Source: Candidatus Doudnabacteria bacterium (GTDB taxonomy: Bacteria; Patescibacteriota; Doudnabacteria; UBA920; O2-02-FULL-48-8). From it: a stretch of DNA of 64,000 nucleotides. Shown here piece by piece: positions 1,214 through 62,787 of this stretch. The translations under genes and the position numbers were made by a program. Position 1 is the first letter of the stretch; each line of letters begins with the position of its first letter. The notes below the pieces were generated by a model. The model was not told the DNA's origin, searched no databases, and saw nothing but the letters and a program-made list of their open reading frames with translations. The stretch is from the NCBI GenBank assembly GCA_016182875.1, contig JACPFQ010000001.1:85680-149679 (forward strand), written 5' to 3'.

Positions 1214-1233
1214 ACTATCACATCTTAGAATTT

Positions 1234-1271
1234 CCCTCCCCTCCCAGGGGAGGGATTAAGGGTGGGGTGGG
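1234..1271. repeat. GC-rich hairpin CCCTCCCC-TCCCA-GGGGAGGG followed by GGGTGGGGTGGG. A related composite element lies at 34031-34120.
   Basis: Perfect 8-bp stem seen directly in the sequence. The same stem with a different loop occurs at 34100-34120, and GGGTGGGGTGGG recurs there as its reverse complement. Confidence 0.7.
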
Positions 1272-1273
1272 TA

Positions 1274-1654
1274 ATGAAAATAAAACCGAAATTGCTTATA
1301 AAGTCAAAGGAGTTAAGAAAGGCTCAAACTCCTTGGGAAAATAAGCTATGGTACCATTTAAGAGCAAAGAATTTTTACGGTTATCGATTCAGAAGACAGT
1401 TTGTAGTCGGACCGTATATAGTAGATTTTTGTTGCTTTGAGAAAAAACTCATCATCGAAATTGATGGCGGTCGGCATAATAAACAAACAAACAAGATCAA
1501 AGACCTTAAAAGATCAGAATATTTAGCTGAGTCTGGTTTTAAGATTCTTAGATTCTGGAACAGCGAAATAGACGAAAACCTGGAAGGTGTTTTGCAAGTA
1601 ATCTCTAACCACCTCTCCCCCGACCCCTCTCCTGGGAGGAGAGGGGAGATTTAA
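1274..1654 (+). CDS. DUF559 (Vsr/endonuclease-like) domain protein
   Basis: 'YIVDFCCFEKKLIIEIDGGRHNK...FKILRFWNSEI' matches the DUF559 fold. The C-terminal 'SPDPSPGRRGEI' is encoded by the palindromic repeat at 1624-1646. ATG at 1274. Confidence 0.75.
   Translation: MKIKPKLLIKSKELRKAQTPWENKLWYHLRAKNFYGYRFRRQFVVGPYIVDFCCFEKKLIIEIDGGRHNKQTNKIKDLKRSEYLAESGFKILRFWNSEIDENLEGVLQVISNHLSPDPSPGRRGEI
1624..1646. repeat. GC-rich hairpin CCCCTCTCC-TGGGA-GGAGAGGGG at the 3' end of the DUF559 gene
   Basis: Perfect 9-bp stem. The same stem with loop TATCA recurs at 34031-34053. Confidence 0.7.
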
Positions 1655-1916
1655 TTTGTAGATAAAACAAATAAAAAAATGCGCCGCGGGCGGGACCAGA
1701 CGATGTCCGGCCCGTTTATTATCAGAGTGACCAGGCTTCGCGGCAGCCGGAGCTCGGAAAGAGCGAAGCATCGGAACTCCTGCCCGTCGGAAATCAGCCG
1801 TCCGGAGAAGCGCAAGATCGATGCTTGCAGGGTCATTCCTACCGGCAGCGACTCTAGGCGTGTGCCTGGCTCGAGGAAGACAGCAAACGTACCAGTAAGC
1901 TCTGCAGGTGGCATGC

Positions 1917-4038: not shown

Positions 4039-4776
4039 ATGCATATCTCGACTGTCATCGAACAACTGGGCTACCCGCCCAGCGAGGTCAGACTTTATCT
4101 GGCAGCTTTGGACATTGGCGAAAGCACAATTACTGATTTAGCCAACAAAGTCGGCATGCCCAGAACCAGTGTTCAAAGCGTGATTGAAGATATGCAAAAC
4201 AGGGGTTTGATGCACAGTTACATCAAACGCAAACGCAGGTACTGGGTGGCTGAAAATCCGGAAAAACTCATGATCTTACTCAAAGAACGCGAGGCCGCGC
4301 TCAAAAGCATCATGCCGGAACTGCAGGCCAAGCGCTTCACCCATGGCGGGCGGTTTGTGGTCCAGATTTACAATGGGCCAACTCAAATTAAACTAATCAT
4401 GGATGATATAATCGATACCAAACATCATATCTCCGCCATTGTTTCTTGGGACGAATGGAAAACGTTTTTGGGCTCCGATTTTGTCAAAGACTTCATCGAA
4501 CGCCGCGTTCAGCATTTTCTTAGGGTGCGTCTGTTGACGGCCCAAACCCCGTCGTCGGTTGAGCTTAAAAAACTGGACGAGCAAAGCTTGCGGCACACCA
4601 AATTCTTGCCTGACAACGCAGGTATCAACAATTCCATCTTTATCTACGGCAACAAGCTCGCCATTATTTCCATCAATAAGCGGCAACCCATGGGGATCGT
4701 CATTGACGATTTGGACATTGCGCACTCAGCTGAAATATTATTTGAAGCTTTATGGAACCAATGTTTGGAGCATTAA
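4039..4776 (+). CDS. TrmB-family transcriptional regulator (N-terminal wHTH)
   Basis: 'LGYPPSEVRLYLAALDIGESTITDLANKVGMPRTSVQSVIEDMQNRGLM' fits the TrmB HTH pattern. The ORF track gives a TTG start at 3973 overlapping the upstream ORF; the ATG at 4039 is preferred. Confidence 0.65.
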   Translation: MHISTVIEQLGYPPSEVRLYLAALDIGESTITDLANKVGMPRTSVQSVIEDMQNRGLMHSYIKRKRRYWVAENPEKLMILLKEREAALKSIMPELQAKRFTHGGRFVVQIYNGPTQIKLIMDDIIDTKHHISAIVSWDEWKTFLGSDFVKDFIERRVQHFLRVRLLTAQTPSSVELKKLDEQSLRHTKFLPDNAGINNSIFIYGNKLAIISINKRQPMGIVIDDLDIAHSAEILFEALWNQCLEH

Positions 4777-4810
4777 TGCTATAATTAAATCAAACTGGAA
4801 AGGACAAAAT

Positions 4811-4939
4811 ATGATGGGCTACGATGGTTGGGGAATGATGGGTTACGGAAGCGGGATTGGCTGGATAACTATCCTGCTGGTCTGGACAACACTGGGCTTT
4901 TGCATTGCCGCTCTTTGGAAGTACACCAGCAAGAAGTAA
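4811..4939 (+). CDS. Putative small Gly-rich membrane peptide (42 aa)
   Basis: 'MMGYDGWGMMGYGSGIGWITILLVWTTLGFCIAALW', one TM helix, SD GGAAAGGAC, followed by the terminator at 4957-4988. Confidence 0.35.
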   Translation: MMGYDGWGMMGYGSGIGWITILLVWTTLGFCIAALWKYTSKK

Positions 4940-5135: not shown

Positions 5136-5759
5136 ATGAAAATAAGACATGTCACCACTCAAGAAGCCAGGCTTGTGGGACAGGAAATTGGCATCGACTG
5201 GAACGAAGTCGACTTGGAGCAATTCCGCCGGGGAATGGAAGTCGAATTTGAGCATGGGCTTATTGACGAACAGACGAATATAACCAACGATAACCCCCTG
5301 CTGACCGGCAAAATCGCCTTAGCTCACCTAAAAGAACTGCCGGATTATTACACTCGACTCGAAAAGATGGAACAAAATCAAGAAGAGTATCAGGAAGCCG
5401 GAAAACCGCATTATTACGGCAATACCATCCGGAAGCTTTTTCTCGTTTCAGCCTTGATAATGGTTATTTCGCTTCCGTTTGCCCAGACCTCACTCAACCT
5501 TCCAGTCTCAATATCAATCGTGGCAATCCTCATTTTGGCCGCTTTTGCGGGAATAATTAGTCCGAGGCTGTTCGCAACAGTTGAGATTGATACGGTCGTG
5601 GCGGCTTTAGGATTTCTGACGTTCGAGTATTTTGGCGTTAAATCATACTCCGAGCACAATGCCTTCTTCTTCGTCATAAACCAAATTCTCGCCGCATTGT
5701 TTTTGTTTGCGGCATACTTTGGAGTAAAAAACTGGCGAGGCATGCTCACCGCCAGATAG
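5136..5759 (+). CDS. Hypothetical membrane protein: soluble N-terminal domain plus about 4 TM helices
   Basis: The N-terminus 'GQEIGIDWNEVDLEQFRRGMEVEFEHG...KIALAHLKELPDYYTRLEKME' resembles a conserved DUF (possibly DUF5661; from memory only). The C-terminal half is hydrophobic. Confidence 0.55.
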   Translation: MKIRHVTTQEARLVGQEIGIDWNEVDLEQFRRGMEVEFEHGLIDEQTNITNDNPLLTGKIALAHLKELPDYYTRLEKMEQNQEEYQEAGKPHYYGNTIRKLFLVSALIMVISLPFAQTSLNLPVSISIVAILILAAFAGIISPRLFATVEIDTVVAALGFLTFEYFGVKSYSEHNAFFFVINQILAALFLFAAYFGVKNWRGMLTAR

Positions 5760-12255: not shown

Positions 12256-12289
12256 CACTATGTAGCGTGCCGATTCATCGGCTCAAGCT

Positions 12290-12324
12290 GATAAATCAGC
12301 GCGCTACAATCACAGTGCCCTTGA
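12290..12324. repeat. Palindromic element GCTGATAAATCAGC with conserved flanks (family also at 49504-49540)
   Basis: ATTCATCG..GCTGATAAATCAGC..GCTACA is shared by both loci. Overlaps the 3' end of the UMP kinase coding region. Confidence 0.5.
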
Positions 12325-15511: not shown

Positions 15512-16554
15512 TAATCTTTCTGTAATGCCAGTTTAATTAAAATATCCAAAAGCTGGGGGTAAGAAATACCGGCAGCGGCAGCGGATTTGGGAACCAACGA
15601 GGTCGGAGTAAGCCCGGGGATGGTGTTGATTTCCAGGAAATAAAGTTCGCCTTTTTTGTTCATAATGAAGTCAGACCGTGTAAGACCGCGGCAGCCCATA
15701 GCCAAATGAATCTGCAGGGCCAGGGTTTGGACTTCTCTCCGGGCCTTGTCAGAGATTCTTGCGGGTACAATTTCATCAGTGCCTCCCACTGCGTATTTGG
15801 CTTTGTAATCAAAAAAATTCGAGATAAGAGGAACAATCTCTATGACCGGCAGGGCCTGCGGCCGGGTGTTGCCAAGCACCGGCACAGTCAATTCGGTTCC
15901 TTCAATGAATTTTTCCACCAAAACTTCGCTGTCATGCCTAAAAGCCTTTTTTATAGCTCTATCCACCGCGGCCTTGCCGGAAACGATGAAGGTTCCCAGG
16001 GATGAGCCCATGCGATTGGGCTTGACCACGACCTTGCCGCGAATTTGCTTGAAATAATGTTTCTTTTCGGAAGCATAGTCGTGCTTGTAAACCAAAACCG
16101 CGTGTGCCACCTTGATGCCAAGTCTTGTTACAAAGACTTTCGTCCTGATTTTGTCCATAGCCAGGGCTGAGGCAAGCACGCTGGAACAGGTGTAAGGAAT
16201 TTTTAAAAGCTCAAGCATGCCCTGAATAGTGCCGTCCTCGCCTCCTGGCCCATGCAAAGCTAAAAGAGCCACGTCGGGCTTGCCCCTTTCGTCTTTGCGA
16301 GTGATTAGCGAAGCAATCTCTTTTTGGGATTGCTTCGTCGCTCCGCTCCTCGCAATGACGGAGCGTGAGATCTGCCTAATTGTGCCGGAAGAGGTCAGCC
16401 ATTTGCCCTGCTTCGAAATCTCAATCGGAATCACGTCGTACTTTCTGGGGTCCAGATTCTGGGCCATGGTGGCGCCCGTGCTCAAAGAGACTTCCCGCTC
16501 TTGCGAAGTCCCCCCAAAAATCAGCGCTACTTTCAGTTTCTTTTGTTTAGGCAT
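15511..16554 (-). CDS. ddl: D-alanine--D-alanine ligase
   Basis: ATP-grasp signature 'ALIFGGTSQEREVSLSTG', 'LHGPGGEDGTIQG', and an 'ELYFLEINTIPG'-type segment. Confidence 0.9.
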   Translation of the reverse strand: MPKQKKLKVALIFGGTSQEREVSLSTGATMAQNLDPRKYDVIPIEISKQGKWLTSSGTIRQISRSVIARSGATKQSQKEIASLITRKDERGKPDVALLALHGPGGEDGTIQGMLELLKIPYTCSSVLASALAMDKIRTKVFVTRLGIKVAHAVLVYKHDYASEKKHYFKQIRGKVVVKPNRMGSSLGTFIVSGKAAVDRAIKKAFRHDSEVLVEKFIEGTELTVPVLGNTRPQALPVIEIVPLISNFFDYKAKYAVGGTDEIVPARISDKARREVQTLALQIHLAMGCRGLTRSDFIMNKKGELYFLEINTIPGLTPTSLVPKSAAAAGISYPQLLDILIKLALQKD

Positions 16555-24018: not shown

Positions 24019-24092
24019 ATTGTCTCCTTATTTCACAAATGATGCAAAAAAAAAGCGGAAAAAATTGCATAAATTACCCAGGTCATAGTTGT

Positions 24093-24118
24093 TATTCTCC
24101 TATTCGCGCGAATTAGAG
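24093..24118. promoter_or_regulatory. Palindromic operator-like repeat ATTCTCCTATTCGCGCGAATTAGAGA, copy 1 (upstream of the GNAT gene, overlapping the 3' end of arsR-1)
   Basis: Perfect 12-bp palindrome ATTCGCGCGAAT. Three copies, at 24093, 24391 and 24734. Confidence 0.5.
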
Positions 24119-24373
24119 ATCGATGAGAAGTGATTTTACGAACGGGCGAAGCTTGGAATTGATACTGTAAAAAACATTTAAATTCCTCTGCTCTCGTTCC
24201 AATAGGTCAGCTCGCGCCAGAATGTTCAAGTGTTTAGAGGTGGCCTTAAAAGAAAGTCTTATTGCTCTGGCAACTTCCTGTACTGAAGCCTCTCTTTCTA
24301 TTTTAAGAAACTGTAATATGTACAGTCGTCGCCGATTAGCCAAGGCTTTAAGAATATTCTCTAATTCTTTCAT
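24113..24373 (-). CDS. ArsR/SmtB-family transcriptional regulator
   Basis: 'ANRRRLYILQFL...VQEVARAIRLSFKATSKHLNIL' is a wHTH. Confidence 0.8.
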   Translation of the reverse strand: MKELENILKALANRRRLYILQFLKIEREASVQEVARAIRLSFKATSKHLNILARADLLEREQRNLNVFYSINSKLRPFVKSLLIDL

Positions 24374-24390
24374 GATACCATTATACTACT

Positions 24391-24416
24391 ATTCTCCTAT
24401 TCGCGCGAATTAGAGA
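24391..24416. promoter_or_regulatory. Operator-like palindrome copy 2, immediately upstream of arsR-1
   Basis: Identical 26-mer. This position is consistent with autoregulation. Confidence 0.5.
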
Positions 24417-24426
24417 AGGTTAACTA

Positions 24427-24729
24427 CTAAGGTTTTATCTCCAACAAAAGACTTACGGTATCGCCGGCTAAGATGTGTTCTTTTTTCCGTACCTCTGCTT
24501 TGAGCGGCAAAAGGTATGCTCCGGCTTTTTTATCGAAAAAAATAGACGTGTTCCAGATTGTTTGTTCGAGTCTAACAATAACTGGAAGCGAACTCCAACC
24601 TCTATGCGCAACAGCGAACAGTTGCTTGATTTTGCCCGACTGATTCTTGAGTAAAGTCACCATATGCCAGGCAGCTATCCCAGGATAAAGCCAGACCCTG
24701 GCCCGCATTTTATAAACCGTTCCTGTCAT
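24427..24729 (-). CDS. DUF1905-domain protein (paralog 1)
   Basis: 'WLYPGIAAWHMVTL...GWSSLPVIVRL...YLLPLKAEVRKKEHILAGDTVSL'. Confidence 0.6.
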   Translation of the reverse strand: MTGTVYKMRARVWLYPGIAAWHMVTLLKNQSGKIKQLFAVAHRGWSSLPVIVRLEQTIWNTSIFFDKKAGAYLLPLKAEVRKKEHILAGDTVSLLLEIKP

Positions 24730-24733
24730 AACT

Positions 24734-24789
24734 ATTCGCTTATTCGCGCGCCTGCCCGCCGAAGCTTTAGCGAAGGCGGGAATTAGAGA
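24734..24789. promoter_or_regulatory. Operator-like palindrome copy 3, split by a 30-bp GC-rich hairpin insertion (CCTGCCCGCCGAAGCTTTAGCGAAGGCGGG)
   Basis: ATTCGCGCG | insertion | AATTAGAGA. The inserted hairpin has stem GCCCGCC/GGCGGGC. Confidence 0.5.
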
Positions 24790-24797
24790 TGGTTAGC

Positions 24798-25109
24798 TCA
24801 GGGTTTAATTTCTAAAACGAGACTGATCGTCTGACCGCCGGTGACTTTTTCTTTCTTGCGTACTTCTGCTTTCAGAGGCAGGACATATGCTGCGGATTTT
24901 TTGTCATAGAAAATTGATGTCTTCCAACTGGTCCGGCCGAGCCTGACGATAACGGGCAAAGAACTCCATCCTCGGTGCATATCCGAAAACAACTCCTTGA
25001 TCTTGTCTGACTGCTTGCGGGGCAGAGTCACCATATGCCACGCCGCCATTCCTGGCCAAATCCAAACCTTGGTTTTGATTTTATACCGACTCCTTGGTAA
25101 CATTCTCAT
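24798..25109 (-). CDS. DUF1905-domain protein (paralog 2)
   Basis: Same pattern as paralog 1, about 60% identical by eye. Confidence 0.6.
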   Translation of the reverse strand: MRMLPRSRYKIKTKVWIWPGMAAWHMVTLPRKQSDKIKELFSDMHRGWSSLPVIVRLGRTSWKTSIFYDKKSAAYVLPLKAEVRKKEKVTGGQTISLVLEIKP

Positions 25110-25132
25110 ATTCTTAAGAATATTGGAATATC
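25100..25132. promoter_or_regulatory. 31-bp repeat ATTCTCA(C/T)ATTCT(C/T)AAGAATATTGGAAT(G/A)TC, copy 1 (promoter region of DUF1905 paralog 2)
   Basis: Four copies, at 25100, 25440, 26907 and 27041. Nested palindromes CATTC..GAATG and AATATT. Confidence 0.5.
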
Positions 25133-25436
25133 AAAACTGCGAAAGGATCTTCTTGAATCTTTCACCATAAGGCGAAAGCTGGTGTTCAACCTTCCGCCCT
25201 TTGTAAGCCTTATTAACCAATCCCGCCTGTACCAGGCGGCGAGTATGCTCAGAGATAGTCTTAAAGTTGCAACGAAGCACATCCGCGATCTGTTCTAGAT
25301 TAATCCCCGGCTGCCTGGCTATCAGCAATAAAATATCGATCCGCCGATGGTTGGCTATCCCCTTAAAATGTCTTTCAAGTTGTTTCGCTGTTTTCATTTC
25401 TTTTTCGCTTCGGACTCTATAAAACCAGTCTATCAC
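25131..25436 (-). CDS. ArsR-family transcriptional regulator (paralog 2)
   Basis: 'HRRIDILLLIARQPGINLEQIADVLRCNFKTISEHTRRLVQAGLV'. Confidence 0.8.
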   Translation of the reverse strand: MIDWFYRVRSEKEMKTAKQLERHFKGIANHRRIDILLLIARQPGINLEQIADVLRCNFKTISEHTRRLVQAGLVNKAYKGRKVEHQLSPYGERFKKILSQF

Positions 25437-25439
25437 AAC

Positions 25440-25470
25440 ATTCTCACATTCTCAAGAATATTGGAATGTC
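25440..25470. promoter_or_regulatory. 31-bp repeat copy 2, immediately upstream of arsR-2
   Basis: Near-identical to the other copies. Confidence 0.5.
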
Positions 25471-25498
25471 TTAACGCCCCAGACCCCGTGTGGGACGT

Positions 25499-25831
25499 TT
25501 ATTTCTTAAGATAAGTCACGCTTCTGCCGGTTCGGCCGATTTGGCGCAATTTGCCTTGCTTTTCCAACTCATCCAGATATCGCTCGGCTGAGGTGTTGGA
25601 GACTCCAAGCATTTTTTCAACCATGTCATTGGTAATTTCATCATTCGCTCCAAAGCTAGCAAGAATCCGATCCAAATTTTTCCGGTGCTCTTCGGCCCGC
25701 ATCAGGTTCACTTCATTTTCGTCCCTGCCTACTTTGCCATTCTGGGGAAGAATCTGATTTTTGCCGAACCAAAATTTGGCAAAAATAACGCCAATGAGGA
25801 AGCCAATGGATATCATCAAAAAATCTCTCAT
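25499..25831 (-). CDS. Membrane-anchored protein with a C-terminal wHTH-like domain (110 aa)
   Basis: N-terminal TM 'ISIGFLIGVIFAKFWF', C-terminal 'ERYLDELEKQGKLRQIGRTGRSVTYL'. Truncated copies of its 5' end lie at 26332-26403 and 27045-27107. Confidence 0.5.
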   Translation of the reverse strand: MRDFLMISIGFLIGVIFAKFWFGKNQILPQNGKVGRDENEVNLMRAEEHRKNLDRILASFGANDEITNDMVEKMLGVSNTSAERYLDELEKQGKLRQIGRTGRSVTYLKK

Positions 25832-25844
25832 AAAATTTTAATTA

Positions 25845-26003
25845 ATATTTATCCATAATGGCAGTTGCATCGTAACCATACTCTTCGGCTTGTTTCAAGA
25901 TTTCTTTCAACTCACCTTTCTTTATAAGAATAAACCCTGATTTTCTCAGGGCCTTAAGGATTCTCGACTGCGAGACATCAGACGGTAACTTAGGTGGTAA
26001 CAT
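25845..26003 (-). pseudogene. HicA-like toxin remnant (52 aa, lacks the central GSH segment)
   Basis: 'MLPPKLPSDVSQSRILKALRKSGFILIKKGE..LKEILKQAEEYG' matches the HicA N- and C-terminal segments but not the catalytic core. Overlaps the upstream gene by 14 nt. Confidence 0.35.
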
Positions 26004-26328
26004 GAACTAATTGATTTTGTTTCTCAAACAGGTCACCTTTGATATTGATTAAGGCAGGGTGGCAGAACCGCGCCGGAACTTCAAACGCTGTAAAAATAGC
26101 ATCTTTGATATTGTGCTCTAATTCCTCTATTGTGGCCCCACTGGTGATTATAGTACCTCGAGTGTAGTCAACAGAGCGGGCAACGAAGTATGATTGTCCG
26201 TCTTCTTCAACTTTCTCAAATCGAAAATTAATACCTCTACCCCTTAACTCAACAAGCATATCTTCTAGATTATCATGAGCTTGATTTTTTGTAGCAGTAT
26301 ATGATTGTATTCTTTGTAGTAATCTCAT
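25990..26328 (-). CDS. HicB/UPF0150-like antitoxin-fold protein
   Basis: 'FRFEKVEEDGQSYFVARSVDYTRGTIITSGATIEELEHNIKDAIFTAFE'. Confidence 0.5.
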   Translation of the reverse strand: MRLLQRIQSYTATKNQAHDNLEDMLVELRGRGINFRFEKVEEDGQSYFVARSVDYTRGTIITSGATIEELEHNIKDAIFTAFEVPARFCHPALINIKGDLFEKQNQLVHVTT

Positions 26329-26331
26329 GAT

Positions 26332-26403
26332 TTAATTATAGTCTAATCGTTTTAGGTGGTCAATAAACAAAAACCCAACAGCCACCATCAAAAAATCTCT
26401 CAT
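26332..26403 (-). pseudogene. Truncated duplicate of the 5' end of gene 25499-25831 (MRDFLMVAVGFLFIDHLKRLDYN*)
   Basis: ATGAGAGATTTTTTGATG plus a conserved upstream 'TTAATTAAA' are identical to the intact gene start. Confidence 0.5.
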
Positions 26404-26441
26404 AAATTATTTAATTAAATTCCAAGAATTCAGATTTTTAC

Positions 26442-26850
26442 CTACTGAACCATAATAGTATAGTTTAGAGTAATAACACCAGTTTTTAATTTATGAAATA
26501 CAAAAAGATACGCAGGTTTGTTCCGCTGATTTTTCTTAATCTTTAATTTCCTACTAACCTGGTCCAATAACTTTATTGGTAAGATAATAAATTCGTTGAT
26601 TCCCGTTTCACGGGTACGCGCTACTAGCACAGTAAAAACTCTTGACTCAACAAACTGAAAAGTGCCCAGTCTTATTCCAATGCTTTGTCTTGACCTGAAT
26701 AAGATAAGTCCTTGCTTCTTTTATTGCAGCAATATCCACACCATAATCAACCGGCAAAATATTTGCATTAAACCCCCGAAACAAAAGCTCGCTCATAACA
26801 GCAGCTTCTCCGCCTTTACCAGTAAAGATATTGATTGATCTCTTGTCCAT
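26442..26850 (-). other. Two small ORFs (62 and 67 aa); the 67-aa ORF has a PD-(D/E)xK-like signature (VDYGVDIAAIKEARTYLIQVK), possibly nuclease gene remnants
   Basis: ORFs at 26442-26630 and 26647-26850, in a region full of gene fragments. Confidence 0.3.
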
Positions 26851-26906
26851 AGATAAAGTCTACCACAAAAGAAAAAGCGTCTTTAGCCAACGTCAACCTT
26901 TATGAT

Positions 26907-26937
26907 ATTCTCACATTCTCAAGAATATTGGAATGTC
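26907..26937. promoter_or_regulatory. 31-bp repeat copy 3
   Basis: Identical core. Confidence 0.45.
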
Positions 26938-27040
26938 AATTCCGTTTTCGACACATTTGTACCAATATCCGAATTGCACCTGCCCAGCCGTCTGGCGGGG
27001 TAATTAAGCAAATCAAGGTTCGATCATGAAGAGTTCTAAT

Positions 27041-27071
27041 ATTCTCACATTCTCAAGAATGTCGGAATGTC
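27041..27071. promoter_or_regulatory. 31-bp repeat copy 4 (variant ..AAGAATGTCGGAATGTC)
   Basis: Truncates the gene-start fragment at 27045-27107. Confidence 0.45.
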
Positions 27072-27107
27072 TAAGAACCCGACAGCAACCAATAAAAAAT
27101 CTCTCAT
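27045..27107 (-). pseudogene. Second truncated duplicate of the 25499-25831 gene start (MRDFLLVAVGFLDIPTFLRM*)
   Basis: Same ATGAGAGATTTTTT start. The reading frame runs into the 31-bp repeat. Confidence 0.45.
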
Positions 27108-27877
27108 AGTGGAATGGATGTAAATGACTGTCGAGAATTTCTTTCAAATTGCCTTAGTTCTTCTTCGCGGATAATCGAATAACGAGAATCATTAAGCCTC
27201 TCCAACGGACAGAAAAATAACCGCGCGGGTTTTTTGGGACTGCCTCCCACTCCGATTACCACAAAAACAGACATCCCCTGTTTTCTACCATATTCTCTAT
27301 AATTTTCTCCCTTCCTTTTGTCCCAGTCTATGCCGCCCTTAAAAAAATATGAGCGATACTTACACTCAACCGCCAATATCTTTCCTGTCCCAATATGCCG
27401 GAAGGTAAAATCAGGATTAGAGTCGGATTCCACTGTCCGTTTAAGAATCTTTGAAAAATCCCTGGTCTTATCAACAACAACCCAGATATCTCTTGGAAAA
27501 AGAGAGGCTACATGGCTTTCGAACTTATAACCTTTTCCGAAGGTGTCATAATAAAGCCAAAGGAAAACCCCGAACACAATCGCGACTACTAAATCTAACA
27601 CCTGCCAAATCTTAGCGTTATGCAGATAAATTGGGACAACCGGATTGAAGAGTATAACTGCTCCAATAAATCCCAGGATCCAGTAAATTTTTCTGCTCCG
27701 GTAAGCAATAAAACTAAGAACAATACCAGCCAAGCTAACAAGCCATCGCAATATGCCAAAGTCGCCTCGATACAAACCCGCCGCTGCGACTAGTAGTGTG
27801 ATGATAACTATCCAGATTAAAATACGCGTTATAACTTCCGGATTCATAAATTTATACCTTTTGCTTAAGTTTACCAC
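27104..27877 (-). CDS. Membrane-anchored NERD (nuclease-related domain) protein
   Basis: 3-4 N-terminal TM helices, then C-terminal 'GKGYKFESHVASLF...DFTFRHIGTGKILAVECKYRS...SVFVVIG', the NERD/PD-(D/E)xK pattern. Confidence 0.6.
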   Translation of the reverse strand: MVNLSKRYKFMNPEVITRILIWIVIITLLVAAAGLYRGDFGILRWLVSLAGIVLSFIAYRSRKIYWILGFIGAVILFNPVVPIYLHNAKIWQVLDLVVAIVFGVFLWLYYDTFGKGYKFESHVASLFPRDIWVVVDKTRDFSKILKRTVESDSNPDFTFRHIGTGKILAVECKYRSYFFKGGIDWDKRKGENYREYGRKQGMSVFVVIGVGGSPKKPARLFFCPLERLNDSRYSIIREEELRQFERNSRQSFTSIPL

Positions 27878-33545: not shown

Positions 33546-34006
33546 TCTATGGATGCAACCAGATATTCGGTTTTGCCGGCCGGGGATTCGACCACAACCT
33601 TGCTGCCAAGCTTGGCGCCCAACAAGGCCCTGCCGACCAGCGATTCGTTGGAAATCTTGCCGGCCGCCGGGTTGGCTTCGCTGGCACCCACAATGGTGTA
33701 TTTGACTTCTTTGCCATTGGTCCCAAGCGTCACGGTACAGCCAATGCTGACGACATTGCGATCGCCGTTGCTTTTAATCAATTCGGCATTCTTGACCATA
33801 TCTTCCAGCTCGAGAATCCGGCCCTCGATGAACGCCTGCTCTTCTTTGGCCTGAGCGTAGTCGGCGTTCTCCGAAAGGTCGCCGTGCGAAATGGCTTCCT
33901 GAATTCGCTCAATGATTTCTTTTCTTCGGTCTTCCTTGAGGACCTTGAGCTCGTCCTGGAGCTTCTTTAGTCCTTCCTGCGTGAGTAGAACTTTTCTGGT
34001 TGGCAT
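33542..34006 (-). CDS. greA: Transcription elongation factor GreA
   Basis: N-terminal coiled coil 'LTQEGLKKLQDELKVLK...', 'GDLSENADYAQAKEEQAFIEGRILELE', and a C-terminal FKBP-like domain. Confidence 0.9.
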   Translation of the reverse strand: MPTRKVLLTQEGLKKLQDELKVLKEDRRKEIIERIQEAISHGDLSENADYAQAKEEQAFIEGRILELEDMVKNAELIKSNGDRNVVSIGCTVTLGTNGKEVKYTIVGASEANPAAGKISNESLVGRALLGAKLGSKVVVESPAGKTEYLVASIE

Positions 34007-34030
34007 ATGGTCTATCTACAAATTAGAACT

Positions 34031-34120
34031 CCCCTCTCCTATCAGGAGAGGGGACGAGGGTGAGGTGGCTTGAGATGCTTTAGCCACCCCACCCTTAGTC
34101 CCTCCCCTGGAAGGGGAGGG
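34031..34120. repeat. Composite GC-rich hairpin element (three adjacent hairpins); the same modules flank the DUF559 gene at 1234-1271 and 1624-1646
   Basis: CCCCTCTCC-TATCA-GGAGAGGGG; GGGTGAGGTGGC..GCCACCCCACCC; CCCTCCCC-TGGAA-GGGGAGGG. Confidence 0.7.
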
Positions 34121-34218
34121 AAATCCTAATTTGAAAAATTAATACCTGCCAAATATATACGATGCGCTTGTTTTTGTCAACGTTTGGGTATATATTTAAT
34201 TTGATTAAGTTAAAAGCT

Positions 34219-34758
34219 ATGAATTTGAACCCGCTAAAGGACTTCATGGATGGCTGGACCGAGAGCCAGGAAGACCTGAAGAAACGAAAACAAATATTCA
34301 AAAGCTTCAAAGCCAAAGCTGACGTCAAGCGTTCGGAATCCGAAAAGCTGGCAGATTCGATGACGGCCTACTTTGGCAGCATGCGGTTTTTGCTTCTAAA
34401 TCTCATTTGGTTCGCGGCCTGGATTCTGATCAACACCAACTCGATTCCGGGTGTTAAGGCATTCGATCCTTATCCTTTCAACTTCCTGACCATGGTCGTG
34501 TCGTTGGAAGCAATAGTTCTGGCAACCTTTGTCCTTATTTCCCAGAACCGGGCGGCGAGAATAGATGACTTGCGCGAAGAGTTGGATCTGCAAATCAACC
34601 TCATCTCCGAACGGGAAGTTACCAAGGTCATCAAATTACTATCTTTGCTTTTGGAGAGGCAAGGAATCGATCTTTCGCAGGATCCGGAGCTTAAAAAAAT
34701 GCTCCGGCCCACCAGCGCTTCGGAAATCGAAAAACACTTAGAGAAGGAAATAAAATAA
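34219..34758 (+). CDS. DUF1003-domain membrane protein
   Basis: 'FDPYPFNFLTMVVSLEAIVLATFVLISQNRAARIDDLREELDLQINLISEREV'. Confidence 0.7.
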   Translation: MNLNPLKDFMDGWTESQEDLKKRKQIFKSFKAKADVKRSESEKLADSMTAYFGSMRFLLLNLIWFAAWILINTNSIPGVKAFDPYPFNFLTMVVSLEAIVLATFVLISQNRAARIDDLREELDLQINLISEREVTKVIKLLSLLLERQGIDLSQDPELKKMLRPTSASEIEKHLEKEIK

Positions 34759-34761
34759 GTT

Positions 34762-34866
34762 CAAAAATCAAAGAGCAAAAATCAAAATGTAATTAAAAAT
34801 GCAAAAAGAATAATTTTTAATTTTGCTTTATCATTTTGCATTTTGACTTTTGAATTTTAAATTCTC
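34762..34866. repeat. ~105-bp AT-rich palindromic intergenic repeat, copy A (family also at 45413-45522 inverted and 61623-61733)
   Basis: CAAAAATCAAAG(A/C)(G/T)CAAAAATCAAAATGTAATTAAAAATGCAAA...TTTGCATTTTGACTTTTGAATT. Lies between convergent genes. Confidence 0.7.
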
Positions 34867-42757: not shown

Positions 42758-42870
42758 AAGCGTCAGTACGGGGACCCGTTTTTCAGCATTAGCAAATGGT
42801 CACTGATCCCGCCTTCGCCAAGGCTTCGGCGGGCAGGCACGGATTACGGATCACAGATCACTTGGTACTG
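42743..42870. repeat. Hairpin CCCCGTACTGA..TCAGTACGGGG, motif TTTTTCAGCATTAGCAAA, and a second attC-like structured inverted repeat
   Basis: Parallels the 40825-40969 architecture: hairpin, then GCATTAGCAAA motif, then inverted repeat TGGTCACTGATCC...GGATCACAGATCAC with an inner CCCGCC..GGCGGG hairpin. Confidence 0.35.
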
Positions 42871-45412: not shown

Positions 45413-45522
45413 AGAATTCAAAATGCAAAAGTCAAAATGCAAAATGACAAAGCAAAATTAAAAATTATTCTCTTTGCATTTTTAATTACATTTTGATTTT
45501 TGAGCTTTGATTTTTGCATTTA
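45413..45522. repeat. ~110-bp AT-rich palindromic repeat, copy B (inverted orientation)
   Basis: Reverse complement matches copies A and C nearly base for base. Confidence 0.7.
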
Positions 45523-49503: not shown

Positions 49504-49580
49504 TTCATCGATGCTGATAAATCAGCAGGCTACACTCGGGTTAGATTGCTTCGTCGCTACACTCCTCGCAAATGCGCAGA
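49504..49580. repeat. Two small palindromic repeat elements overlapping the 3' end of mreB-2: GCTGATAAATCAGC (also at 12299) and TTAGATTGCTTCGTCGC..CTCCTCGCAAATGCG (also at 52925-52965)
   Basis: Shared 35-40-nt segments at both loci. Confidence 0.5.
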
Positions 49581-50733: not shown

Positions 50734-51999
50734 TTAATCAATTCTTTTAATCTCAGCGCCCAACTTTTGCAATCTCTGCTCTATCTTCTCGTATCCTCTG
50801 TCAATATGTTCGATGCCATCGATCTCCGACTGGCCCTCGGCAACCAAGCCGGCAAGCACCAAAGTCATACCCATCCGAATATCATAACTGACAAGCTTGG
50901 CCCCGTAAAGCCTGGCTGGGCCGGTTATTTTGACCCGGTGAGGGTCAAGGATTTGGGCTTTGGCCCCCATTTTATTCAATTCAGAAGCATATCCCAAACG
51001 GTTTTCATACATCCATTCATAGATTACGGTTTCTCCTGCCGCTTGGGTTGCCAATACAGCCAGCGCCGGAGTGTCGTCGCTTGCAAGCTTTGGATAAAGC
51101 CCGACCTGCAATTTATTTACGGCGCGGTAGGCGGCTTTGGGCGGATGGACGCGGACAAAATCTTTGCCAACCTCAAAATTTACGCCGAACTGCTTCATTT
51201 TCAGCAGAAAGTCATCAAGAAACCCGGGATCAAGATGAGTAATTTTAATATCCCCTTTGACGGCGGCGGCAAGGGTGATGAATGTCGCGGCTTGATTGGA
51301 GTCGGGAATTACTTCGGCCTGTCCGCCCTTCAAGCTGGAAACGCCTTGGATAACCAGTGTTGGACTGCCTTTCCCTGAGATTTTGGCGCCCATGCCGTTC
51401 AAAAAGTCGATCAACTGCCCAACGTGCGGCTCCATGGCCGCAAGCTTAATCGTAGTAATGCCGTTTGCCAGCGCCGATGCCATCAGCAAATTTTCCGTGG
51501 CTGTCACAGACGTTTCTTCCATTACTATAGTTGCGCCCGAAAGCCCGTTGGGCGCGGAAAAACTGTAGCCGCCGTCTGTCTCAACCTTGGCCCCTAGGCT
51601 TACGAAACCTGCAATATGCGGCTCAATCGTCCGAACCCCTATTTTGTCCCCGCCGCTGGTTTTTAAATCAGCTTGCTTCATTCGAATAAGCAAGGGCCCG
51701 GCCAATAAAATCGACGCCCGTAATTTGGATGTCAGCTCCGGATTTGGAGCGGATCGGTTCAGTTCTTTCGGGTCGATAACCAGCTTCCCGGCTGAGCGGT
51801 CGTAATCCACTTTTGCTCCCAAACCGGTAATCAGCTTAATCATCACTTCCACATCCTCAATGAGTGGGACATTGGTCAAAACACTTTTTTCTTTCGATAA
51901 AAGACTGGCCACCATTAAAGCCAGAACCGAGTTCTTGGAGCCGGAAACCGGAATTTCACCGCTTAACTTTTTGCCGCCGTTTATGATAAACCTAGCCAT
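50734..51999 (-). CDS. murA: UDP-N-acetylglucosamine 1-carboxyvinyltransferase
   Basis: 'ARFIINGGKKLSGEIPVSGSKNS', EPSP-synthase fold, 421 aa. Confidence 0.93.
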   Translation of the reverse strand: MARFIINGGKKLSGEIPVSGSKNSVLALMVASLLSKEKSVLTNVPLIEDVEVMIKLITGLGAKVDYDRSAGKLVIDPKELNRSAPNPELTSKLRASILLAGPLLIRMKQADLKTSGGDKIGVRTIEPHIAGFVSLGAKVETDGGYSFSAPNGLSGATIVMEETSVTATENLLMASALANGITTIKLAAMEPHVGQLIDFLNGMGAKISGKGSPTLVIQGVSSLKGGQAEVIPDSNQAATFITLAAAVKGDIKITHLDPGFLDDFLLKMKQFGVNFEVGKDFVRVHPPKAAYRAVNKLQVGLYPKLASDDTPALAVLATQAAGETVIYEWMYENRLGYASELNKMGAKAQILDPHRVKITGPARLYGAKLVSYDIRMGMTLVLAGLVAEGQSEIDGIEHIDRGYEKIEQRLQKLGAEIKRID

Positions 52000-52924: not shown

Positions 52925-52965
52925 TTAGATTGCTTCGTCGCCGTTCGGCTCCTCGCAAATGCGAA
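52925..52965. repeat. Repeat TTAGATTGCTTCGTCGC..CTCCTCGCAAATGCG, copy 2
   Basis: Matches 49541-49580. Confidence 0.5.
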
Positions 52966-61619: not shown

Positions 61620-61622
61620 AAT

Positions 61623-61733
61623 GCAAAAATCAAAGCTCAAAAATCAAAATGTAATTAAAAATGCAAAGAGAATAAAGATACTTTTTTAATTTTACTCTGT
61701 CATTTTGCATTTTGACTTTTGACTTTTGAATTC
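61623..61733. repeat. ~110-bp AT-rich palindromic repeat, copy C, between gap and pgk
   Basis: Near-identical to 34762-34866. Confidence 0.7.
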
Positions 61734-61734
61734 T

Positions 61735-62787
61735 CTATTGCTTGCCTATAAGTATCGCCTGCTCCACAAACCGGTTCGCGTACCCAAATTCATTGTCATA
61801 CCAAGCCACAACCTTGACCAAGTCACCATCTACGACTTGGGTGAGCGACAAATCCACGATGGCGGAATGCGGGTTGCCTATGATGTCCGAAGAAACTATT
61901 GGGTCGATAGTTACCTGCAAAATATTTTGCCACATTGGATGCTTGGCTGCCTCTATAAATGCCTTGTTTATTTCATCCACAGTAACTTTCCTATTTAGAA
62001 GAGCCGTAAAATCCGACAACGAGCCGCAAGAAACAGGCACACGATAAGAAGCGCCGCCGAACTCTCCTTTCAGCTCTGGAATTACTTCGGTCGCCGCGAT
62101 TGAAGCTCCTGTAGATGTTGGGATGATGTTTGCCGCAGCTGCGCGGGCCCGCCGTAAATCGCCCGACTTGCCGCCCGGCGGCGGGCCGTCTACCAAATTC
62201 TGCTCAGCGGTATAGGCGTGAATGGTGGACATCATCATTTTCTTGATCCCAAACTTGGAATGCAGAATTGCCGCGACCGGAGTGATGCAATTCGTGGTGC
62301 AGGAGGCATTCGAAATAATTTGCTGTTTGCCATATTTGTCGTGGTTTACACCGATAATAAATGTGGGTGTATCGTCATGAGCGGGAGCGGAAATAATTAC
62401 TTTTTTGGCGCCGGCGCGAAGATGTGCGCCTGCTTTTTCCGAATCAGTAAATCTCCCCGTGGATTCCAGGACGACATCAACATCCAAGTCCTTCCAGGGC
62501 AAGGCCGCCGGGTCTTTCTCCGCGAACACCGGCACTTTAGTTTTTTCGGCGATCAAAGTTCCGACCGTATAAGAAGATGGGTTAACTTTTTCGTGCTTAT
62601 CTTCAAATGAAACTTTCTTGTCATAAATCCCGTAAACTGAATCATACCGAAGCAGGTGAGCCAACACTTGTGGCTCGGTTAGGTCGTTAATAGCTACGAC
62701 TTCAAGCTCAGGCTTAGTCAGGGCGATTTTAAAAGCCTGCCTCCCGATGCGGCCAAATCCATTGATTGCGACTCGAATCTTATCCAT
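61735..62787 (-). CDS. gap: Glyceraldehyde-3-phosphate dehydrogenase
   Basis: 'RVAINGFGRIGR', active site 'SCTTNC'. Confidence 0.93.
   Translation of the reverse strand: MDKIRVAINGFGRIGRQAFKIALTKPELEVVAINDLTEPQVLAHLLRYDSVYGIYDKKVSFEDKHEKVNPSSYTVGTLIAEKTKVPVFAEKDPAALPWKDLDVDVVLESTGRFTDSEKAGAHLRAGAKKVIISAPAHDDTPTFIIGVNHDKYGKQQIISNASCTTNCITPVAAILHSKFGIKKMMMSTIHAYTAEQNLVDGPPPGGKSGDLRRARAAAANIIPTSTGASIAATEVIPELKGEFGGASYRVPVSCGSLSDFTALLNRKVTVDEINKAFIEAAKHPMWQNILQVTIDPIVSSDIIGNPHSAIVDLSLTQVVDGDLVKVVAWYDNEFGYANRFVEQAILIGKQ

Follow-up and report, generated by a model that had tools for sequence, protein, structure and literature searches.

In the REP/RAYT partnership, a gene of nuclease type, in single or low copy number, is bracketed by inverted short palindromic repeats, which are also dispersed without the gene, as doublets and singlets. 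REP sequences are simple hairpins with a GTAG/CGTC tag, and RAYT proteins are HUH/Y1 transposases of IS200/IS605 type. Another palindromic repeat, BoxC or PIT, is said to have been described early on by Bachellier et al. in the 1990s and by Hoyne and Maher in 2000 and 2002. Named BoxC first, then PIT elements and then TMECO, this motif is intergenic and dispersed, often in inverted pairs that combine two slightly different types, with 23 copies in Escherichia coli K-12 and occurrences in >260 genomes (Holder et al. 2015, PMC4666352). The E. coli motif forms a stable triplex in vitro, as seen by circular dichroism and nuclear magnetic resonance, and its sites show higher local variability between strains and a link to local genome instability; according to the authors, no transposase, integrase or other mobility function has ever been found beside it (PMC4666352). 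In another reading, this motif is a switch between hairpin and G-quadruplex (HPGQ; Kaplan et al. 2016, PMC5100583). Here we report on a 64-kb stretch of a metagenome-assembled genome (MAG) of Candidatus Doudnabacteria, hereafter called the window, whose coordinates are used throughout. From their sequences, we identify two of its segments as copies of the BoxC/PIT/triplex motif (TM) palindromic repeat, one carrying a gene for a DUF559 nuclease related to E. coli YcjD (1225-1672) and the other gene-free (34005-34129, hereafter the solo). We put at about one half the probability that they represent a selfish cassette, with the TMs as the ends of the unit, the DUF559 nuclease as its own enzyme and the solos as its gene-less relatives.

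The preliminary description of this stretch had listed hairpins A and B and the segment GGGTGGGGTGG around the DUF559 gene and again at 34 kb, and we found all of them. Hairpin A (CCCTCCCC-N5-GGGGAGGG) occurs exactly at 1234-1254 and 34100-34120, and hairpin B (CCCCTCTCC-N5-GGAGAGGGG) at 1624-1646 and 34031-34053, with 0 matches to either in 100 shuffles. GGGTGGGGTGG is present at 1260-1270, as its reverse complement at 34084-34094 and as a one-mismatch copy, GGGTGAGGTGG, at 34058-34068 (3 occurrences including one mismatch versus 0.48 expected). The resemblance between the two copies is larger than these three modules. The left end of the gene copy (1225-1287) matches the reverse complement of 34067-34129 at 84% identity over 63 nt, and its right end (1601-1672) matches that of 34005-34076 at 83% over 72 nt; the similarity reaches beyond the hairpins, to TTAGRATTT on the left side and TAATTTGTAGATA on the right. 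Joining the left and right ends of the 448-nt gene copy gives the 125-nt solo, which lies 33 kb away on the opposite strand. The proposal that the DUF559 gene is carried inside a palindromic multi-hairpin element with a gene-free copy at 34 kb is thereby borne out, the two being related along both whole ends.

The gene copy reads as follows on the plus strand. Its left terminal sequence, TTAGAATTT (1225-1233), has the opposite orientation to the right terminus and takes part in a closing stem; its counterpart in the solo is TTAGGATTT (34121-34129, reverse complement). Hairpin A, CCCTCCCC-TCCCA-GGGGAGGG, follows with its pyrimidine arm first (1234-1254), and after it comes the G-rich segment GGGTGGGGTGGG (1260-1271), 2 nt before the ATG of an open reading frame (ORF) that codes for a YcjD-like, Vsr-fold PD-(D/E)XK nuclease of the DUF559 family (1274-1654, 126 aa, annotated as MBI2355669.1). 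CCACCTCTCCCC (1609-1620) lies inside the ORF. Next to it, hairpin B, CCCCTCTCC-TGGGA-GGAGAGGGG (1624-1646), encodes the peptide …PSPGRRGE… and forms the last codons of the ORF (…LSPDPSPGRRGEI and stop), as had been noted from the start; altogether, the last 15 codons come from the right triplex motif. The right terminal sequence AGATTTAATTTGTAGATAAAACAAAT (1647-1672) holds the stop codon and is common to the solo at 34005-34030. The element ends with TTAGRAYTYCCCTCYCC at both termini, inverted. Because GGGTGGGGTGGG and its complement CCACCTCTCCCC are both present in the gene copy, the ORF sits in the 'loop' of a central stem. In the solo (34005-34129, minus strand, with hairpin B at 34031-34053 and hairpin A at 34100-34120), the same stem is formed by facing G-rich and C-rich arms (34058-34069 and 34083-34094) with a 13-nt loop, which shows a weak similarity to the few bases at either extremity of the gene interior. 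When single-stranded, the solo is predicted to fold into a junction of a closing stem, in which the left terminus pairs with the right, and three hairpins (-40.9 kcal/mol, z -7.6, for a Watson-Crick fold only).

The modules had initially been taken as three separate units. They are better described as two inverted intrastrand triplex motifs of the BoxC/PIT/TMECO type. Each end of the element is one TM, composed of a pyrimidine arm, a loop, a purine arm, a spacer and a G-rich segment that mirrors the purine arm. The inverted arrangement of the two TMs places the G-rich segment opposite the C-rich one, and the two are able to pair. The hairpins at all four sites (1234-1254, 1624-1646, 34031-34053 and 34100-34120) have 8-9 bp plus a T-A closing pair, within the 6-15 bp of the G/C-rich, short-looped BoxC/PIT/TMECO hairpins, and they are the only pyrimidine-first C-rich hairpins of the window. 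The G-rich segment GGGTGGGGTGGG would act as the 'third strand' of the left motif, as G*G or T*A triads with the purine arm are obtained at all 7 of its positions. CCACCTCTCCCC is the complement of the third strand of the right motif, with 7/7 triads on the minus strand. Overall, the triad rule holds at 7/7 positions in three window motifs and at 6/7 in the motif at 34031. In the window, one half is of the C/G/G type and the other of the T/A/A type, as in E. coli pairs. Given these features, we assign the window modules to the published 'intrastrand triplex motif'.

To place these motifs in a wider frame, we scanned one genome per species with a pattern consisting of the hairpin, a spacer and GGGTGRGGTGG, and retrieved at most 8 kb around each motif. 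This yielded at least 120 loci with 123 motif copies, spanning Proteobacteria, Bacteroidota, Verrucomicrobiota, Cyanobacteria, Chloroflexota, groups of the Candidate Phyla Radiation (CPR) and Methanomethylophilaceae. Among the 123 copies in the matches listed, three positions covary almost perfectly: the pyrimidine arm contributes its variable base, the purine arm the base paired with it and the G-rich block a third base. The combination is C/G/G in 57 copies, T/A/A in 56 and another in 10. If the G-rich block folded back antiparallel, the third covarying base would lie against the purine arm and complete C:G*G or T:A*A triads. Because the triad positions covary, the hairpin and the adjoining G-rich segment form one unit, and the view of the modules as independent hairpins was dropped. 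Approximately 18% of the evaluable copies among the matches listed form inverted pairs, 27-98 nt apart.

The association between gene and motif extends to relatives of the window gene. We collected a protein-centred sample of 80 metagenomic DUF559 loci, relatives at 38-56% identity that were the best tblastn matches to the window query. A pyrimidine-first C-rich hairpin is found at no more than 150 nt from the gene in 71 of the 80 loci (upstream in 60, downstream in 56). The density of these hairpins is ~7 per kb within 100 nt of the gene versus 0.077 per kb beyond 500 nt, a ~90-fold enrichment, and purine-first hairpins, which provide a built-in control, are near 0 around DUF559 genes. The layout is constant, i.e. 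hairpin and G-rich block, ATG and gene, C-rich block and hairpin. Where the orientation of a hairpin could be classified, the third strand is turned towards the gene in 33 of 39 cases upstream and in 33 of 36 downstream. In 41 of 54 cases, the ORF continues across the downstream hairpin, and each of the three frames is represented (16/16/8), indicating that the motif is conserved as DNA and not as a peptide. Among distant relatives on viral contigs, the association is present in 19 of 38. A second Doudnabacteria homologue, L001 (68% identity), has six such hairpins around the gene. Starting from the motifs, the ~900 kb around the 123 copies listed contain three DUF559 genes in all, each overlapping a motif, and the other 120 copies are gene-free. 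Within the members of the gene family sampled, the location of the gene inside an inverted motif pair is the rule. As a side observation, L001 harbours a five-hairpin composite variant of the motif as direct repeats on both sides of its DUF559 gene (4713-4820 and 5373-5480); in this variant, also found in some metagenomic loci such as L145, a further hairpin, of the GCGCGAAGCGCC type, separates the hairpin from the G-rich block.

These numbers bear on the simplest alternatives. Hairpins of this type are common across bacteria, and the motifs might be there by chance or, as the preliminary description had itself envisaged, be generic GC-rich terminators unrelated to DUF559. This idea can practically be discounted: shuffling gives an expectation of zero matches for hairpins A and B, the ~90-fold enrichment at DUF559 genes comes with a fixed orientation, and the four hairpins of the 64-kb window are all in the two elements, with no pyrimidine-first C-rich hairpin in ~69 kb of syntenic DNA of related genomes, so that they are not generic terminators. 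Intrinsic terminators were rejected as well, since only hairpin B has a weak T-rich tail and hairpin A has none, and the solo is in the 5' leader of greA.

In a more elaborate version, the motifs would be expression signals of the gene itself, providing its ribosome-binding site, mRNA-stabilising stem-loops and terminator, and the solos would be unrelated or convergent. Indeed, a G-rich, Shine-Dalgarno-like segment is found 2-30 nt before the start codon, GGGTGGGGTGGG being a possible ribosome-binding site of the window gene, and hairpin B followed by AGATTTAATTT is weakly terminator-like. However, the solo is 83-84% identical to both ends, and the shared sequence includes non-hairpin positions, which makes it a relative and not a case of convergence. 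It is also located in a 5' leader between divergent genes rather than at a 3' end. Moreover, published assays detected no promoter or terminator activity for PIT elements (PMC4666352), and the three-way covariation of the triads is not explained by a role as ribosome-binding site or terminator. We consider this explanation very unlikely.

With related Doudnabacteria as the reference, both window copies appear from sequence comparison to be insertions. Relatives whose DnaB is 87% identical (L125-L130) have 2 nt between dnaB and recR (…GGAATAA-AT-ATGGCC…), as against 1,121 nt in the window. The corresponding insert (1214-2334) is absent from close relatives and comprises the element and 660 nt of orphan GC-rich DNA. 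Other relatives harbour at this place 131 nt with a different palindrome (L131 11414-11544) or a 9.5-kb insert (L134 11417-20945); as inserts vary among Doudnabacteria, the dnaB-recR junction is a hot spot. The L131 palindrome is ~100 nt long, GGATTGGGTTGCAAAACTA…TAGTTTTGCAACAATCCC. As for the orphan DNA between the DUF559 element and recR (1673-2334, 53.5% GC), its four ORFs have no Pfam match and the segment has no Rfam match; the best ORF, 1917-2240 on the minus strand (HYV13_00505), has no homologue other than itself among 1.84 billion representatives.

At the second locus, the DUF1003-greA spacer of a relative with 88% identical GreA lacks the 125-nt element and keeps the promoter TTGACA-17-TATATT, which in the window is a near-consensus, promoter-like site outside the element (34152-34180, minus strand). 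The conserved promoter lies upstream of the solo, placing the latter inside the greA leader. Relatives at 81% identity also lack the element in their orthologous leaders (L257, L258 and L260). The solo would be transcribed within the greA leader, and hairpin B, weakly terminator-like on that strand, could attenuate greA. With the solo inside the greA leader and dnaB parted from recR by the gene copy, these elements alter the surroundings of core genes, even though this CPR genome is minimal. In addition, independent short-read assemblies of this organism are all interrupted within the DUF559 gene or the solo: L122-L124 end at window position 1447, and L254-L256 start at 34113 or 34128. Such breaks are expected if the sequences are repeated or polymorphic in the population.

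The main rival to the selfish cassette is homing. TM pairs would pre-exist as dispersed sites, a free-standing DUF559 nuclease would cut the centre of an empty pair, and its gene would be copied in by double-strand-break repair, for which the repeat arms would supply the homology, the solos being the targets. The location of the gene exactly between the facing arms that form the central stem of the solo agrees with this scheme, as do the inverted pairs 27-98 nt apart, representing ~18% of the motif copies listed, which are potential empty sites, and the paired TMECOs noted in the E. coli literature. The window protein also has a detectable relation to I-Bth0305I, a homing endonuclease of the Vsr-fold EDxHD group, but the similarity is marginal (E 1.7e-4). 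The dnaB-recR junctions of relatives consist of 2 nt only and contain no repeat pair, which indicates that no empty pair at the orthologous site served as the target of the gene copy; the only 'empty' pair seen in the window is the paralogous copy at 34 kb. The ORF also has no spare ends, starting 2 nt past the left arm and, in 41 of 54 loci, reading through the right motif, which suggests that the motifs are part of the unit. Finally, the resemblance of the solo loop to the ends of the gene interior, although weak, fits a deletion derivative. We therefore regard homing as rather unlikely. The preliminary description had proposed a mobile element, either a homing unit or one resembling a miniature inverted-repeat transposable element (MITE). 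Mobility, which we infer from presence and absence between species, is supported by the insertions at both loci; classical homing into an existing site finds no support at dnaB-recR, and the strict MITE label has to be abandoned because of the lack of a target-site duplication and of a transposase.

The ORF belongs unambiguously to the DUF559 family (PF04480, 130.1 bits, E 3.8e-38, cut-off 20.6), and its Pfam matches are PF04480 and PF18741 only. The family profile matches PDB 3HRL, a Neisseria 'endonuclease-like protein', at E 6e-40 and I-Bth0305I (3R3P) at the marginal value given above; Vsr is a faint relative. D51, E62, D64, H68, D77 and R93 are invariant in 35 diverse homologues, from which the gene is predicted to be under selection as a probable active nuclease. 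The score with the YcjD equivalog NF007294 (92.7 bits) is below the cut-off of 218, which makes the window protein a relative of YcjD and not its orthologue. The DUF559 core has 35% GC compared with ~47% for the host and the local sequence, and a poor host-codon score. Many homologues from unrelated phyla harbour tails such as …SPDPSPASGRGE or …PNPLPQGEG, or similar N-terminal peptides, which are motif DNA in translation. A second copy, P0006, is truncated (80 aa), 91% identical and endowed with the same tail; it is on another contig, and its accession places it in the run of the same MAG, to which it probably belongs.

The protein features could also be taken to mean that DUF559 renders a service to the host, as a structure-specific repair nuclease for the non-B DNA (triplex or cruciform) that motifs would adopt anywhere in the genome, with its own motifs serving for autoregulation and the motifs spreading by an unrelated route. 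Vsr, the founding relative, is a repair nickase, the catalytic residues are conserved, and the motifs, which are tied to local instability, adopt stable triplexes in vitro. Nevertheless, the distribution of the gene is patchy and its composition foreign, truncated and duplicated copies exist, the presence of the gene is polymorphic, and no triplex has been detected in vivo (PMC4666352). Close Doudnabacteria relatives have neither the gene nor the motifs at the sampled loci, so that the gene looks accessory or selfish rather than housekeeping. We hold a host service to be unlikely, and both host repair and purely regulatory roles fit the polymorphism and the position of the solo poorly.

E. coli ycjD itself illustrates this polymorphism. 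The gene ends with …RRSPSP and a stop codon in a degenerate hairpin arm, and a TMECO is found ~170 nt downstream. In the K-12 fabI-ycjD spacer (L253 6241-6440), a duplicated fragment of the ycjD 3' end, GGAGACGGTGCTGGAGAATATTC…, lies downstream of ycjD and is followed by the TMECO. Upstream of ycjD, a perfect 16-bp palindrome, CACCTCATTCTGACAA…TTGTCAGAATGAGGTG, is present instead of a triplex motif. With no clear upstream motif and a duplicated 3' fragment, the E. coli copy looks decayed or domesticated. Of 5,426 complete genomes, 3,375 (62%) have the segment comprising ycjD and TMECO, and in the others homology resumes only beyond TMECO; a 2026 study reported the eefRABCD operon as the alternative allele at the ycjD site.

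Returning to the selfish cassette, we propose that the nuclease would nick or cut TM DNA, in duplex or extruded form, and that host repair or recombination would then copy or relocate the TM-bounded DNA. Loss of the interior between the facing arms would generate TM pairs, and further decay single TMs, so that gene-less pairs and singles would come to outnumber gene copies greatly. Both the cutting specificity and the spreading route are inferred. More tentatively, though we consider the idea quite possible, YcjD-like DUF559 nucleases might be the missing enzymes behind BoxC/PIT/TM repeats in bacteria and some archaea: the gene would ride between inverted motifs and its product would recognise the motif, with cuts driving spread, deletion and local instability. 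The motif might be recognised as non-B DNA, in the form of an extruded cruciform or a triplex, or through G:T mismatches when two unlike motif types pair.

Several observations weigh against the selfish cassette. The tblastn query included the hairpin-encoded tail, which may inflate the count of downstream hairpins, albeit not that of upstream ones. Gene-free motifs vastly outnumber genes: E. coli has 23 TMECOs versus one ycjD. Distant hairpins match the gene-flanking hairpins of their own locus in 22 of 47 cases versus 17±2.9 expected, which is not significant, because stem types are few. The comparisons at the insertion sites are between species (81-88% protein identity) and not between strains, and loss in the relatives could in principle also account for them; furthermore, the element may have entered dnaB-recR in a larger piece together with the 660 nt of unrelated orphan DNA. 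The flanks of both copies harbour no target-site duplication, and no transposase or integrase was found, DUF559 being the sole gene of the long copy and matching no transposase family. The published work on the motifs detected neither in vivo triplexes nor promoter or terminator activity (PMC4666352). Lastly, we found no biochemical report on any YcjD-like DUF559 protein in the searchable literature.

Repeat and protein family have both been described before, and their systematic physical coupling appears to be new. In the open-access literature, we found no paper linking a DUF559 or ycjD gene to the repeat, older subscription papers lying outside that search, and PMC4666352 and PMC5100583 make no mention of ycjD, DUF559 or an endonuclease. 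Since the 1990s, hundreds of genomes have been found to contain BoxC/PIT/TM repeats, for which no origin or spreading mechanism has been established, and DUF559/YcjD is a large family with solved structures to which no function has been assigned; each would explain the other. The broader hypothesis would also account for the '…PSPxxGRGE'-type tails of many DUF559 proteins, by read-through into the motif. One published study found DUF559 coding sequences to be 14-fold enriched among predicted inversion targets, an enrichment among invertible genes that the same hypothesis would explain, and another described DUF559-containing segments as recombination hotspots in Legionella.

The window harbours other repeats and few landmarks. 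Approximately 110-nt A/T-rich repeats of the AAAATGCAAAA type are found at 34756-34865, 45413-45522 and 61620-61739, two of which are 93% complementary and inverted. A cluster of 23-43-nt repeats at 24086-27108 includes units with the palindrome ATTCTTAAGAAT at 25092, 25430, 26897 and 27031. This cluster overlaps a region of low GC (24-30 kb, where the content falls to 34%) and might represent an island or a regulatory array. A GC-rich sequence of 35 nt, CGCGCCTGCCCGCCGAAGCTTTAGCGAAGGCGGGA, is present at 24747-24781 and, inverted and with 91% identity, 18 kb away at 42807-42841. Two dispersed repeats, GATTGCTTCGTCGCTCCGCTCCTCGCAA (16328-16355, 49544-49571 and 52931-52958) and GCTGATAAATCAGC…CTACA (12287-12311, 49513-49537 and 51659-51683), adjoin at ~49.5 kb. 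No Rfam family matches the 64 kb at the gathering threshold, with only sub-threshold chance matches at E<=1 in 1150-2400, and the 64 kb contain no tRNA or tmRNA gene as an integration landmark.

How, then, does the Doudnabacteria element compare with known systems? Its motifs are nearly identical in sequence to BoxC/PIT/TMECO (CCCTCTCC-loop-GGAGAGGG-spacer-GGGTGAGGG) and share with them the G/C-rich purine-motif triads and the local variation in presence and absence. The published motif is nevertheless treated as a gene-less repeat, whereas here a nuclease gene lies between paired motifs, in a CPR host. On the protein side, N. gonorrhoeae NGO0050 (PDB 3HRL) and E. coli YcjD belong to the same family as the window protein, both being uncharacterised DUF559 proteins. 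The likeness to YcjD includes the 92.7-bit match to NF007294 and the genetic context, as ycjD also ends in a hairpin arm near a TMECO on a strain-variable segment.

The EDxHD homing endonucleases, represented by I-Bth0305I, have in common with the window protein a Vsr-like catalytic core and the lifestyle of a mobile element. The gene for I-Bth0305I (PDB 3R3P; Taylor et al. 2011) lies within a group I intron or inteins, and the enzyme has extra DNA-binding regions, according to the passages devoted to it in PMC9403480 and PMC3424549. In contrast, the window protein is free-standing, with a ~115-aa core, and is bounded by repeats; neither intron nor intein is present. The solo is reminiscent of a MITE in its small size (125 nt), its terminal inverted repeats, its strong secondary structure and its being the gene-less counterpart of a longer unit. 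It departs from a strict MITE, which we ruled out, in that neither copy has a target-site duplication and the parent unit has no recognised transposase.

The likeness to REP/REPIN-RAYT systems ('REPtrons') resides in a gene flanked by inverted copies of a dispersed repeat. A RAYT system in the strict sense was excluded by the two Pfam matches of the protein, PF04480 and PF18741, with no HUH/Y1 transposase among them. DUF559 differs from RAYT in being a Vsr-fold PD-(D/E)XK nuclease without known strand-transfer chemistry, and its repeats are of the triplex type. By analogy, the logic of the cassette resembles that of REP repeats with a RAYT gene, with a different enzyme; if the proposed link between YcjD-like nucleases and BoxC/PIT/TM repeats is true, it would represent a second, mechanistically independent partnership of the REP/RAYT kind.

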